Sequence record: OL960580
From: Escherichia phage vB_EcoM_SA21RB
Strand: one strand, 5' to 3'
Length of the DNA: 64,000 nucleotides
Shown here: in pieces, positions 40,919-63,567 of the stretch
Numbering within the stretch: position 1 is the stretch's first letter
Layout of the letters: every line of letters starts with the position of its first letter
Notes under the pieces: generated by a model
What the model was told of the DNA's origin: nothing
Database searches by the model: none
What the model saw: the letters and a program-made list of their open reading frames with translations, nothing else
Made by a program: the position numbers and the translations under genes

Positions 40919-41389
40919 TTAATCATGTTTCCACACCCCATCGGTATTTGACCAAAGTCGCTGATTATCTGATCCTCTCCACAGCTTTTTGGTAGGAAGA
41001 TTTTTCTCATACTTCCCATCAATAATAACATCAACATATTTAAGCATTTCTAGTTGTTTAATATCTTCAAATTTATATCCTGTCCACAACCAAATGCTTT
41101 TATTTGGATAAAGATTTTTTACTGTTTGAACAATGCAATGAACAACATCTCTGTTATCAGGATAAAGAGGGTCACCCCCAGTTATAGTTAATCCTTCTAT
41201 ATAATCATTATTTAAACATTCAATTAATTGTTCTAGTGTTTCACCAGTGAATGGAACGCCATTTCTAGCATTCCATGTTGATTTATTATAACATCCTTCA
41301 CATTTATGCAAACATCCCGTAACGAAAAGAACGACCCTGCATCCAGGGCCATTCACAAAATCACAGGGATAAAATCTATCGTAATTCAT
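40919..41389 (-). CDS. nrdG: anaerobic ribonucleotide reductase activating protein (radical SAM)
   Basis: 156 aa; CxxxCxxC-type cluster (GCLHKCEGCYN); adjacent to nrdD. Confidence 0.9.
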   Translation of the reverse strand: MNYDRFYPCDFVNGPGCRVVLFVTGCLHKCEGCYNKSTWNARNGVPFTGETLEQLIECLNNDYIEGLTITGGDPLYPDNRDVVHCIVQTVKNLYPNKSIWLWTGYKFEDIKQLEMLKYVDVIIDGKYEKNLPTKKLWRGSDNQRLWSNTDGVWKHD

Positions 41390-43203
41390 TGGTGTTTAAC
41401 CCTATGCATGATTTCTTTATTTTTGCCAAGATTAAATCCGCGTTCGTTCGGATTTCCCAAATAACCACAAGTTCTTCTTATTGTGTTCATCTTTTTAGGA
41501 TCAGTTTCTCCACAAATAGAACAAACAAATCCGTTTTCAGTAGGAGTCATTTCATGGGTACTTCCACATGTAAAACATTTATCTACTGGCATGTTAACAC
41601 CAAAATAATCTAAATGTTGTGCAGCATAATCCCATACAGCCTCAAGACCTTTTAGGTTATTTTTCATATCAGGAAGTTCAACATAAGAAATGTGACCACC
41701 TGTCGCAATGAAATGATATGGGGCTTCTCGAGAAATCTTTTCAAACGGAGTGATATTTTCTTCTACTGAAACGTGGAAACTATTAGTGTACCATCCTTTA
41801 TCAGTAACATCCTTTACACTTCCATATTTTTCGGTATCGAGTTTACAGAAGCGATAACACAAGTTTTCAGCAGGTGTAGAATACAAGCTAAAAGCAAAAC
41901 CAGTTCTTTCAGTCCACTGCTTAAGACGAGCATTCATTTTAGTTAAAATTTCCTGTCCAATATCACGACCGACAAGAATATTCAATTCGTGAATACCGAT
42001 GTATCCTAGGGACACTGAACTTCTACCATTTTTAAATAACTCAATTATGTCATCATCAGGTTTAAGACGAACCCCGAATGCACCTTCTTGGTAAAGAATA
42101 GGAGCAACAGTCGCTTTAACTCCTTTTAAGGAACTAATTCTACACATCAAAGCTTCAAAACACAAATCCATTCGTTCATTGAACAATTCAACAAATTTCT
42201 GTTCATTGAACTGTGTTCCAATATAAGAATCTAATGCAATACGAGGAAGATTCAGTGTTACAACGCCAAGATTATTACGTCCATCAAGAATTTCATTACC
42301 AGTCGAATCTTTCCATACACTCAAGAAACTGCGGCAACCCATTGGAGAAACAGGAATAGATGAACCTGTGATAGCTTTATTGTTCTTAGCCGAAATGATG
42401 TCAGGATACATTCTTTTGCTTGCGCACTCTAAAGCAAGCTGCTTAATATCATAGTTCGGATCGTCTTTATAAAGATTAACACCTTCTTCAACGAACATAA
42501 CAAGTTTAGGGAAAATAGGAGTTATCCCATCACGACCGAGACCTTTAATACGATTTTTCAGAATTGCTTTCTGAATCATTCGTTCAGTCCAGTCAGTTCC
42601 CGTACCAAATGTAATTGTTACAAAAGGCGTTTGCCCGTTTGAACTAAAGAGAGTATTTACTTCATACTCATAAGCTTGAAATGCATCGTATACGTCTTTT
42701 TCTGTTTTAGATTGGGCGTAATTCAACGCATCAGCGATTTGCCATTTTTCTGCGTCCTCAATATGTTTTGCATAGGTGCGTTTAACATAAGGAGAAAGTA
42801 CTTTATCTACATTCGCAAAAGTCGTTCCGCCATATTGGTGGGAAGCAACCTGTGCAGTAATTTGCGCCATAATTGCAGTAGCAACGCCGATTGATTTAGG
42901 AGTTTCAATCTGTGCATTACCGAGCTTAAATCCGTTCTCAAGCATTCCTTTTAAATCTACTAAACAGCAATTAGTAAATGGAAGAGCAGGGGAATAATCA
43001 ATATCGTGGAAATGGATAATTCCGCTTTCATGCGCTTTCATAATAAAAGACGGGACCATATTTTTGGCAATGTGTTTAGACACAATACCAGCCATAAGGT
43101 CCCGTTGAGTTGGAAAAACACGAGAATCTTTATTAGCATTCTCGTTTAAAAGGTCTTTATTAGTTTTATGAATTAGTCCTTCAATTTCTTTTTCAATCGT
43201 CAT
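41386..43203 (-). CDS. nrdD: anaerobic ribonucleoside-triphosphate reductase, uninterrupted
   Basis: 605 aa continuous ORF; C-terminal Zn ribbon CFTCGS...CSICG and glycyl radical region RTCGYLG. Confidence 0.95.
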   Translation of the reverse strand: MTIEKEIEGLIHKTNKDLLNENANKDSRVFPTQRDLMAGIVSKHIAKNMVPSFIMKAHESGIIHFHDIDYSPALPFTNCCLVDLKGMLENGFKLGNAQIETPKSIGVATAIMAQITAQVASHQYGGTTFANVDKVLSPYVKRTYAKHIEDAEKWQIADALNYAQSKTEKDVYDAFQAYEYEVNTLFSSNGQTPFVTITFGTGTDWTERMIQKAILKNRIKGLGRDGITPIFPKLVMFVEEGVNLYKDDPNYDIKQLALECASKRMYPDIISAKNNKAITGSSIPVSPMGCRSFLSVWKDSTGNEILDGRNNLGVVTLNLPRIALDSYIGTQFNEQKFVELFNERMDLCFEALMCRISSLKGVKATVAPILYQEGAFGVRLKPDDDIIELFKNGRSSVSLGYIGIHELNILVGRDIGQEILTKMNARLKQWTERTGFAFSLYSTPAENLCYRFCKLDTEKYGSVKDVTDKGWYTNSFHVSVEENITPFEKISREAPYHFIATGGHISYVELPDMKNNLKGLEAVWDYAAQHLDYFGVNMPVDKCFTCGSTHEMTPTENGFVCSICGETDPKKMNTIRRTCGYLGNPNERGFNLGKNKEIMHRVKHQ

Positions 43204-60644: not shown

Positions 60645-60904
60645 ATACTGGCTTCTTTGAGTTTCGTTTTAGCAATAGTTAACTGATCGAGGCTTTCAGC
60701 ATAATTCTTCGCGAGTTCATCATCTTCACAGCTATCGAATGCTTCCCAGAATTCATCATATAAAGCATCAAAGATAAGTCCTAAACGAACTTCAGCGTCT
60801 TTGATAGCATTCACTTTACCGATTTTCTCTTCAGTATGCGGCTTATAACCTTTAATGTCTTCAATCATATTTGACTTCCTCACCAGTACATAAATCATAT
60901 TCAA
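60602..60904 (-). CDS. hypothetical acidic protein
   Basis: 100 aa; overlaps the neighbour by 43 nt, start uncertain. Confidence 0.45.
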
Positions 60905-61082
60905 CTAAACGAATAGGTTCATGAATGCCATATCCCTGAACAGAAATTTCTGTCGTAGGATAAATTCCATCAATATCACCCATATTCCACGCTTCGTTAA
61001 ATTGCTGTTCGCCTGAATTACTAAACCACTCGGCGAAAGCATTTAGCACATCTTTAGAACCTTCAATAATTATCTTTGCCAT
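60861..61082 (-). CDS. small hypothetical protein
   Basis: 73 aa. Confidence 0.45.
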   Translation of the reverse strand: MAKIIIEGSKDVLNAFAEWFSNSGEQQFNEAWNMGDIDGIYPTTEISVQGYGIHEPIRLVEYDLCTGEEVKYD

Positions 61083-61444
61083 TACAAACTCTCGGTAAAG
61101 GTACGAGCGATAACGTCGCGCTGCTGTTCCGGAGTCAGAGAGTTAAAGCGAACTGCATAACCGGATACACGGATGGTCAGCTGCGGATATTTTTCCGGAT
61201 GCTTAACTGCATCTTCCAGAGTTTCACGACGCAGAACGTTAACGTTCAGGTGTTGACCACCTTCAACTTTAACTGTAGGCTGTTGCTCAATTTCAATTTC
61301 ACGGGCATGCAAACCGTAGAAAATTTCTGGGTCTACAAAAGAGTCCTCTTTAAAGGTTTTAGAGACAATAATTCGTGCTTGAATACCATCTTCAAAATAA
61401 ATAGTACCTTTATGTGTGCCTTCAAGAATTTGATATGCTTTCAT
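61082..61444 (-). CDS. autonomous glycyl radical cofactor (GrcA/YfiD-like)
   Basis: 120 aa; C-terminal [25 protein letters not shown] glycine-radical signature. Confidence 0.7.
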
Positions 61445-61451
61445 ATAAACC

Positions 61452-61832
61452 TCAATTAGAAAATAAATTTATCCAAGATTGTTCTTTAATTAAAAATGGC
61501 TCAGAATCATATGCCATTAAACTCTGCGTGATTAGTCCTTTAAAAGGTCCATCAATAAATTCCATGGTAAAATATGGAATTTTATTCATTAGCCGTGCAT
61601 TAGGAGCAGTACATAAAACTTTGCATCCTTTGAATACACCCTTTTGTAATTTGTATTGCTTGGGATAAAATTCGCTCAAAATGTTATTATTTGCTAAAAT
61701 TTCAAAATGATTCACCAATTTATTTTTAATAGTTTTTGGCGAAAAATAAAGATATTCGAAAAGCTGAGTGTCTGTCATCATTGCATTCCGATTACGAAAA
61801 ACTGTGGACGAGTAATACCGCCAATACAACAT
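61452..61832 (-). CDS. hypothetical protein
   Basis: 126 aa; overlaps the upstream gene in another frame, start uncertain. Confidence 0.45.
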
Positions 61833-62317
61833 TTAATATTACAGCAGCAGTGTACGGTGTCAATATGGACACTATAAATCTTATCCATATCAGGAGATTT
61901 GACAGGCTCGTCAATTATATACAAAATTCGCGAAAGCGATAAACCTCTGAACTTGCTTCCTTTATTACCTATAAAACTGCGCACAGAATCAGTAAATAAA
62001 CGAAAACGTATATCATCATTAGAATAACGCGAAAATTCCTTTTTAATGTTATTTGCAGAAATTTTAGCGTAAGCTGAAGTATTAGAAAGAACAATAACTG
62101 TTCCACCGTCATACAACCAATTAGCGGCAAAATTAGTTACTGCAGTTGATTTACCAGATTGACGTCCACCATCTAGTCGAAGTGTGCAATACTGCTTAAG
62201 TAAGTCTTCAAATGGCGGGATATATTCGTTTTTACAAATTTCTTCTACTCTAGCGTCAGAATGGTGTGTAAAAGCATTCATCAGGGATAGATAAGGACCA
62301 GTTAAAAATGTTCTCAT
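61778..62317 (-). CDS. P-loop NTPase-like protein
   Basis: ORF track extends to 62365; ATG 62317 gives 179 aa; Walker A GGRQSGKST. Confidence 0.5.
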   Translation of the reverse strand: MRTFLTGPYLSLMNAFTHHSDARVEEICKNEYIPPFEDLLKQYCTLRLDGGRQSGKSTAVTNFAANWLYDGGTVIVLSNTSAYAKISANNIKKEFSRYSNDDIRFRLFTDSVRSFIGNKGSKFRGLSLSRILYIIDEPVKSPDMDKIYSVHIDTVHCCCNIKCCIGGITRPQFFVIGMQ

Positions 62318-62470
62318 TTTCTTCTCTCTAAATTTGGGCCATTCCATGGCGCATGAATTGTCCATTTCTGTATTTACCCATTACCGCACTTGGGCTCGAC
62401 CTTATTACAGGTTGGCGGGAATCCCTCATAGAATCATGAGGTCCAGCTTGTTCCCATATTTCTTATTTGC

Positions 62471-62944
62471 TTATTTGAATGATTTGACGTACTGAATAGA
62501 ACCTTTACTATTCACGAAAGCGATTTTACCATTTTTATTATACATGGTAGCAGTACGCTGATAGCCATAAGTTTGTTTACCAGATTGATAACCAACTAAT
62601 GCGAAATTATCTTCACCCATTTTATTCTGTTTAGCGCGAATACGTTCATGACCGTGTGCCATAAGAACCTTAGCATCACCAGTTGCAATGGATCGACGAG
62701 TTTTTTCATCTTCAACTGTATTAACAAAGTCGTCAAATGAATCAAATTTAGCATGAGATTTATTATACAGTTTTCCATCTACTGCATAATTATATCCTTG
62801 TACATCCATCTCAACTTCTGTACCATCATCCAATACAGCAGTGATTTTCTGACCTTTTTTAAATTTCAAAAGATCAGTAAAAGATTCAGCAATAATTTGA
62901 GAATTAATAGCTGCTTCAGTAATAAATTCTTGATATGTTTTCAT
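62471..62944 (-). CDS. internal-protein-like head protein with capsid targeting sequence
   Basis: 157 aa starting MKTYQEFITEA, the conserved N-terminal targeting sequence of T4 internal proteins; length differs from T4 IPII. Confidence 0.7.
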   Translation of the reverse strand: MKTYQEFITEAAINSQIIAESFTDLLKFKKGQKITAVLDDGTEVEMDVQGYNYAVDGKLYNKSHAKFDSFDDFVNTVEDEKTRRSIATGDAKVLMAHGHERIRAKQNKMGEDNFALVGYQSGKQTYGYQRTATMYNKNGKIAFVNSKGSIQYVKSFK

Positions 62945-62985
62945 ATGTTTCCTTTAAATGTAAATAGGTCTGAGTATTAGCTTTA

Positions 62986-63567
62986 TTAAGAATTACCACG
63001 GGCTGCATTAGCAACGGCGTAAGCGTACTGAACATTAGCGTCTTTAAACGTACCTTTAGAGGTATCTAGTTCTGCCTTAAAGCCGCCTTTAGTCATAACC
63101 TCGGCGAATTCTTTACGGAAAGCCATTGCATCAAGGCTTCTCCATGATGATTTGTGCTTGGCGAATTCAAGACCAGCGTAGTTGACAGCCTTAGCTAATT
63201 TATTATCAATAACCCATTTACCAGATTTAGGCACAAACACCGGGCCTTTCTGTTTAGAGAATAGTTTTAAATTCCAGCGACGAAGGTCACCGTCAGCTTT
63301 AACAAAAGCTGCGTCCAAGTTACTAGCAACAACATCTTGAATATGACCAAATTTAAGCCCATCAACTTCAATATTTAAATCGGTACGCCAGCGAAGTCCT
63401 TCCCAAGCGAAGGCTTTAAAGTCGGAAGCCTTTGTAGCTAAGTACCGTTCAATAGGAGCTGTTTTAGGGTCAAAGCCGTTTCCCGATCGGTAGGTCCACT
63501 CATCTTTATTAATGCCTTTGGCCTTTACTACAGAAGCTTCGGCAATAAATTCTTGATAGGTTTTCAT
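62986..63567 (-). CDS. ipIII: internal protein III
   Basis: 193 aa starting MKTYQEFIAEA; length matches T4 IPIII; directly upstream of e. Confidence 0.7.
   Translation of the reverse strand: MKTYQEFIAEASVVKAKGINKDEWTYRSGNGFDPKTAPIERYLATKASDFKAFAWEGLRWRTDLNIEVDGLKFGHIQDVVASNLDAAFVKADGDLRRWNLKLFSKQKGPVFVPKSGKWVIDNKLAKAVNYAGLEFAKHKSSWRSLDAMAFRKEFAEVMTKGGFKAELDTSKGTFKDANVQYAYAVANAARGNS

Follow-up and report, generated by a model that had tools for sequence, protein, structure and literature searches.

The window, a 64,000-nucleotide stretch of Escherichia phage vB_EcoM_SA21RB (sequence record OL960580), carries on its minus strand an open reading frame (61082..61444) whose 120-residue product ends in a glycine-radical signature. 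A sequence-only reading had placed such a protein at exactly these coordinates and had likened it to the spare glycyl radical domains of the GrcA/YfiD type. The features of this locus, and of the two ribonucleotide reductase genes that bear on its interpretation, are as follows.

61082..61444, minus strand: grcA (vs.6, ortholog of T4 Y06I), coding sequence from the open reading frame list, with an ATG start and 120 codons plus stop
61450..61453, minus strand: ribosome-binding site GAGG, read from the sequence, 5 nt upstream of the grcA ATG
61268..61444, minus strand: phage-specific 5′ half of grcA, codons 1-59 (177 nt), GC 0.34, GC3 0.22
61095..61267, minus strand: host-identical tract of grcA, gene nt 178-350, codons 60-117, identical to E. 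coli grcA at 173 of 173 nt
61151..61171, minus strand: RVSGYAV heptapeptide, residues 92-98 of the translation, with the radical glycine G95 at 61160..61162
61080..61084, minus strand: TAATG stop/start overlap of grcA with the downstream vs.5-like open reading frame (60861..61082), from the sequence and the open reading frame list
41386..43203, minus strand: nrdD, matching PF13597 (E 1.2e-171) and containing a Gly_radical domain
40919..41389, minus strand: nrdG, a radical SAM protein gene

The GAGG ribosome-binding site of grcA overlaps the stop codon of the upstream vs.7-like gene, and the TAATG overlap at the other end of the gene is found in the same arrangement in T4 and PhiZZ30. This overlap suggests translational coupling within the vs.8-vs.7-vs.6-vs.5 gene string. 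When we looked for a promoter of its own, we counted 12 promoter-like sites, against 9.2 ± 3.1 in shuffled sequences, and consensus sites were not enriched; the nearest good −35/−10 pair (61863-61836) lies within the vs.8-like open reading frame. We therefore do not claim a dedicated promoter for grcA.

The 8 kb surrounding grcA are 96 to 98% identical to T4-type (Tequatrovirus) genomes, and by this measure the window is a segment of a Tequatrovirus genome. Its gene order (tk...vs, vs.1, regB, vs.3-5, vs.6, vs.7, vs.8) matches that of T4, and the flanking genes are alike in PhiZZ30. In the T4 record the neighbors of vs.6 are vs.7 and vs.5; beyond them lie regB, vs.1, vs and tk in one direction and vs.8, denV, ipII, ipIII and e in the other. 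The record names the vs.6 product "autonomous glycyl radical cofactor GrcA," a name also given to the RefSeq Tequatrovirus genes to which the window gene is 99.7% identical in nucleotide sequence. The window protein shares 117 of its 120 residues (97.5%) with T4 vs.6 (NP_049730). Given this identity and the conserved position next to vs.7 and vs.5 in the tk-regB-denV/ip-e region, the orthology of the open reading frame to T4 vs.6 is clear. T4 vs.6 is the Y06I of the older literature, and the gene is thus a correct rediscovery of one already known and biochemically characterized. A megablast search gave homologs in 756 phage records and a blastn search in 1,515, 925 of the latter covering at least 80% of the gene.

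Some neighbors of the locus depart from the T4 pattern. T4 denV sits between vs.8 and ipII; a tblastn search found no denV (endonuclease V) homolog in the 64-kb window, where internal-protein genes directly follow the vs.8-like open reading frame (61778..63567, minus strand). The vs.8-like open reading frame itself (61778..62365, minus strand) encodes a P-loop-like GGRQSGKST and had no Pfam match. The adjacent open reading frames 62471..62944 and 62986..63567 (minus strand) both encode MKTYQEFI(T/A)EA at the N terminus, a leader characteristic of T4 internal proteins. At 157 aa, the product of the first is longer than T4 ipII (100 aa), so that this phage has another variant of internal protein where T4 has ipII.

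To place the protein within a family, we compared it with the GrcA/YfiD family as defined by TIGR04365 and InterPro IPR011140, with an expected size of about 120 to 130 aa. At 120 aa it is a small stand-alone radical domain without a catalytic barrel, its sole Pfam domain being Gly_radical (residues 60-101, E 2.2e-18, 67.2 bits). The NCBIfam GrcA model TIGR04365 was its top family (E 1.1e-45, HMM alignment over residues 20-120), and the NMR structure of E. coli YfiD (6OWR) matched residues 22-120 (E 6.9e-42), so that the likeness to GrcA seen in the sequence-only reading held up. The matches to the GrcA family and to the glycine-radical signature are far above chance. TIRVSGYAV, at residues 90-98, is the same nonamer as residues 730-738 of E. 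coli PflB and conforms to a PROSITE-type glycine-radical pattern; the longer motif that had first drawn attention to the gene spans residues 92-116 (61097..61171). Within it, RVSGYAV is identical to the G734 site of PflB. This heptapeptide is the substrate peptide of the PFL activase, PFL-AE (PDB 3CB8). The protein thus combines a PFL-type signature with the activase recognition peptide, and its C-terminal domain is close to the part of PFL (about residues 693-759) that is lost or displaced after cleavage by O2.

The N-terminal half is more diverged. Because of this divergence, the full-length protein scores 154.9 bits against TIGR04365, below the curated equivalog cutoff of 170, and the N-terminal half scanned by itself matched no NCBIfam model. 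Its homology to residues 1-60 of YfiD rests on a pairwise BLASTP comparison of the N-terminal halves, in which 15 of 40 aa were identical to YfiD residues 28-67 (38%, E 3e-6), and on the full-length TIGR04365 alignment, which begins at residue 20. Thirteen N-terminal positions were invariant across the window protein, T4 and E. coli GrcA: A23, R24, I26, V27, K29, F31, E33, D34, R48, E49, E53, P56 and V58. By their conservation, these residues are candidates for contacts with cleaved PFL. In size, single-domain organization, signature, PFL-like C terminus and homologous N-terminal half, the phage protein, judged by these comparisons, has all the structural attributes of GrcA.

Aligned with E. 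coli grcA, the two halves of the gene behave differently. The 5′ half could not be aligned to the host gene in DNA, about half of its positions differing. Searched by blastn against 5,426 complete E. coli genomes, the gene matched only over nt 178-363, at 97.8% identity, and the match lay on grcA. There were no differences within nt 1-170 of this 3′ block, and all four differences fell in its last 13 nt. A three-way DNA alignment and an inspection of the junction placed the abrupt switch to host identity at GTTGAAGG (codons 60/61). Base composition changes across the same junction: GC3 is 0.22, and thus phage-like, in the 5′ half and 0.44 in the 3′ block, compared with 0.43 for E. coli grcA. 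The host-identical tract encodes the structured glycyl-radical domain. In protein, the last 60 aa are identical to those of E. coli GrcA at 60 of 60 positions, and the glycine-radical motif is present in the alignment of the two, as the sequence-only reading had expected.

The block comparison further showed that the tract is nearer to E. coli grcA than are the grcA genes of Citrobacter (92.9%) and Salmonella (84.2%), which indicates that it was taken from Escherichia after the genus had diverged. The 5′ half remains a genuine homolog of GrcA (15/40, E 3e-6), and the gene is thus an old phage grcA in which the 3′ half has been replaced, not host DNA joined to some unrelated stretch of phage sequence. 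Transfer in the opposite direction, from phage to host, was rejected on two grounds: E. coli grcA has a uniform GC3 (0.42 in the 5′ part and 0.43 in the 3′ part), and its 3′ block lies at ordinary between-genus distances (93% and below), as with vertical descent. On these comparisons the direction of transfer is from host to phage. Nor is the tract an artifact of assembly or contamination, as hundreds of phages sequenced independently of one another have it, the T4 reference record among them.

T4 itself shares with the window the 120-aa product, the neighboring genes (vs.7 upstream, vs.5 downstream and, at a greater distance, regB, vs and tk) and the mosaic structure. The T4 protein differs from that of the window at three positions (Q54P, V60I and R73H, T4 residue last). 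The window allele keeps R73, as does E. coli, so that its last 60 aa match host GrcA at 60 positions, compared with 59 of 60 in T4. Beyond nt 38 the T4 block shows no differences from E. coli grcA until nt 177, and the host-identical tract of the window ends 6 nt earlier than that of T4.

Phage records were also searched with the host genes as queries. With E. coli grcA as the query, 638 phage records (Tequatrovirus and Mosigvirus) reached at least 95% identity, always over query nt ~200-384 only. With K. pneumoniae grcA as the query, 106 records, from Klebsiella Jiaodaviruses, reached at least 95%, over nt 202-369/374 only. In the Jiaodavirus vB_VIPKPNUMC01, the corresponding 3′ half of vs.6 has 96.0% identity with the grcA of K. 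pneumoniae and 87.9% with that of E. coli. From nt 1 to 107 its block equals K. pneumoniae grcA at 107 of 107 positions and carries all 14 sites that distinguish K. pneumoniae from E. coli there, including those that change LEDAVKH to LLDAVEH. No phage record reached 90% identity when the grcA genes of Salmonella and Enterobacter were used as queries. The evidence for host tracking is therefore confined to Escherichia and Klebsiella. The K. pneumoniae grcA sequence was drawn from PLSDB "plasmid" records. Several PLSDB entries (CP125156.1, NZ_OL790696.1 and others) are multi-megabase "plasmids" that are evidently chromosomes, one example being a 5.37-Mb K. pneumoniae "plasmid unnamed2," and such chromosome-sized records are a caveat for any plasmid-based counts.

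All converted phages have the same left breakpoint, at codon 60/61, while the right end of the tract varies: the window is identical to the host through block nt 170, OES_C-2 differs from the host only at nt 174, and the 3′ halves of Jiaodaviruses are internally patchy. That the right-hand ends differ between phages implies more than one conversion event. Mosigvirus and Tequatrovirus copies are 88% identical to each other in the 5′ half and 97% identical in the 3′ half, as expected if each had been homogenized against E. coli. The left breakpoint is situated within the NMR-defined structured domain (YfiD residues 61-127), a few codons from its start, at the point where DNA homology between phage and host begins. 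It may merely be the limit of homology usable for recombination, and a tract, once converted, would lend itself even more readily to another round of conversion.

The GrcA homologs of Jiaodavirus, Slopekvirus, Karamvirus, Krischvirus RB49, Aeromonas phage 31, the T5-like Epseptimavirus and RaK2 are 120 to 138 aa long and have the same terminal radical domain. Their 3′ halves lie between two extremes, identity with the host (Jiaodavirus, with K. pneumoniae) and an old, phage-like state (Karamvirus). In Karamvirus the 3′ block shows a GC3 of 0.21 and ~74% nucleotide identity to any host, and the copies of RB49, Aeromonas phage 31 and T5-like phages reach at most about 80% DNA identity to any host compared. 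These unconverted copies (Karamvirus, RB49, Aeromonas phage 31 and T5-like) keep 48 to 54 of 60 aa identical; such retention at low DNA identity indicates purifying selection on them. The 3′ halves of Karamvirus, RB49 and the T5-like phages represent the old, unconverted state. T5-like phages (Demerecviridae) and the jumbo phage RaK2 also carry GrcA-like genes, those of the T5-like phages often annotated as "pyruvate formate-lyase" or even "ribonucleotide reductase subunit." The C terminus of the T5-like copies (e.g., Salmonella phage BD13) is equidistant from GrcA (48/60) and PflB (47/60), hinting at a separate origin.

Taken with the shared left breakpoint and the variable right ends, these patterns suggest recurrent host-to-phage gene conversion of the radical domain. 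It is likely, in our judgment, that the radical-domain half has been repeatedly overwritten by recombination with the allele of the current host species, the phage keeping its diverged N-terminal docking half. The exact identity to the host allele could be either selected or a neutral by-product. A full-text search, which did not extend to Wagner et al. 2001, Miller et al. 2003 or Bowman et al. 2019, found no published description of the mosaic or of the gene conversion; the C-terminal identity may possibly have been noticed in the literature before.

What the protein does is best approached through PFL. Over residues 659-760 of PflB the phage protein is 56% identical (106 aa, BLASTP E 5e-32), and its last 60 aa are identical to PflB at 48 positions. 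The C terminus of PflB (about residues 693-760) has the same fold element and the signature TIRVSGYAV; the phage protein differs from PflB in having no 690-residue catalytic barrel and would be a replacement part, not an enzyme. When O2 meets the Gly734 radical of PFL, the polypeptide chain is cleaved at that residue (PMC8683613). The same article credits Knappe and coworkers (Wagner et al. 2001, pmid 11444864) with showing that E. coli YfiD and T4 Y06I restore O2-cleaved PFL in vitro, PFL activase installing the radical on YfiD or Y06I, which forms a complex with the cleaved PFL. YfiD residues 61-127 share the fold of PFL residues 693-759 and provide a new radical loop, and YfiD residues 1-60 are disordered and govern binding to cleaved PFL (PMC8683613). 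YfiD and Y06I are the sole validated spare-part proteins (PMC8683613, J Biol Chem 2021).

In the window, the protein carries the exact activase recognition peptide RVSGYAV together with the exact host radical domain. By analogy with T4 Y06I, to which it is 97.5% identical, we predict that PFL activase would install a radical on it and that it would reactivate cleaved PFL. The proposed sequence of events would begin in an anaerobic or microaerobic host exposed to oxygen, where O2 would hit the Gly734 radical of PFL and the chain would be cut there. The phage protein would then dock on the cleaved PFL, probably through its N-terminal half, a docking role that is ascribed to this half by analogy with YfiD. 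The C-terminal domain (about residues 60-120), identical to that of host GrcA, would replace the lost radical loop. Host PflA would finally abstract a hydrogen from G95 of RVSG95YAV, and the conversion of pyruvate to acetyl-CoA and formate would be restored.

After infection by a T4-type phage, host genes are no longer expressed and the host DNA is degraded, so that PflB and GrcA cannot be resynthesized. A spare part made by the phage would therefore sustain fermentative ATP and acetyl-CoA until lysis. We infer such a benefit to the phage in vivo for gut-like microaerobic conditions; our literature search found no in vivo phenotype of a phage vs.6 mutant. As a whole, the account of Tequatrovirus vs.6 (T4 Y06I) as a GrcA that serves as a spare part for O2-cleaved host PFL is, in our view, very probably right.

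Three other accounts were weighed against it. The protein might be a decoy or modulator that soaks up PflA or SAM, or that binds intact PFL or TdcE, and so redirects host fermentation. The half that governs the binding of cleaved PFL in YfiD is only 38% identical to that of the host, and binding could differ. However, T4 Y06I is reported to restore PFL activity, not to inhibit it (PMC8683613), and the preserved identity of the catalytic half to host GrcA is more in keeping with a functional replacement part than with an inhibitor. We regard a decoy as very unlikely.

A second idea is that the protein supplies a spare radical domain to the class III ribonucleotide reductase of the phage itself, NrdD, and is activated by phage NrdG. 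The sequence-only reading had noted that the phage encodes NrdD and NrdG, as it does, both within the window, and had left open a rescue of either this enzyme or host PFL. A 2006 comparative paper (PMC1524935) had likewise speculated on a role of vs.6 in nucleotide metabolism, from a Pfam match alone, and the window's NrdD does have a Gly_radical domain. The gene pair nevertheless lies about 17.9 kb from grcA, sharing no operon with it and with many unrelated open reading frames between, so that to call grcA "near" the anaerobic reductase was generous. BLASTP of phage GrcA against the window's NrdD gave no significant similarity (best E 2.6, with the radical sites unaligned); the NrdD radical site reads IRRTCGYLG and is followed by an unrelated tail. 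Neither an NrdD-type resemblance nor linkage to nrdD/nrdG was thus found. The kinship of the radical domain is instead to host GrcA and, at a greater distance, to PflB (60 and 48 of the last 60 aa), and the biochemistry of the T4 ortholog was, according to PMC8683613, done with PFL and PFL-AE. On similarity and distance we rejected the reductase as the partner, an assignment even less probable than a decoy; of the two rescues proposed, that of O2-damaged host PFL stands, as reported in vitro for the T4 ortholog.

As a separate observation, nrdD (41386..43203, minus strand) is a single uninterrupted open reading frame of 605 aa. In T4, a group I intron carrying I-TevII interrupts nrdD (sunY), and the window phage appears to be intronless at this site.

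Least probable of all is that the gene holds functionless host DNA picked up by accident, as 173 nt identical to E. coli grcA might suggest, since the open reading frame is unbroken and continues in frame from a conserved 5′ half of phage type, the same position is retained across several Straboviridae genera and hundreds of genomes, and the diverged copies of Karamvirus, RB49 and Aeromonas phage 31 keep the radical motif and 51 to 54 of 60 aa despite ~74% nucleotide identity, which indicates purifying selection on them.

Under the spare-part account, then, the closest known counterpart in the host is E. coli GrcA/YfiD (P68066; 6OWR), with which the phage protein shares the stand-alone domain, the C-terminal 60 aa, the 173 nt of identical DNA and the RVSGYAV radical site (G95 in the window protein, equivalent to G102 in E. 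coli GrcA). It differs from the host protein in an N-terminal half that is 7 residues shorter, 38% identical over 40 aa and written in AT-rich phage codons (GC3 0.22, versus 0.42 in E. coli grcA). The phage gene is expressed from a phage gene string, whereas the host grcA locus adjoins eamB.

The identification of the gene adds nothing in itself, T4 vs.6/Y06I having been a textbook spare part since 2001 and being routinely annotated as GrcA. The mosaic indicates that a strictly lytic phage that degrades host DNA still swaps sequence with the host chromosome at a homologous locus, and does so in a host-species-specific way. It also divides GrcA in two, a radical domain that can be exchanged and an N-terminal half specific to the lineage, whose few conserved residues are candidates for contact with cleaved PFL. 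If the pattern is selected, the spare part must exactly match the PFL and the activase of the host. If it is neutral, the gene would be a rare natural record of ongoing homologous gene conversion from a host to a lytic phage.
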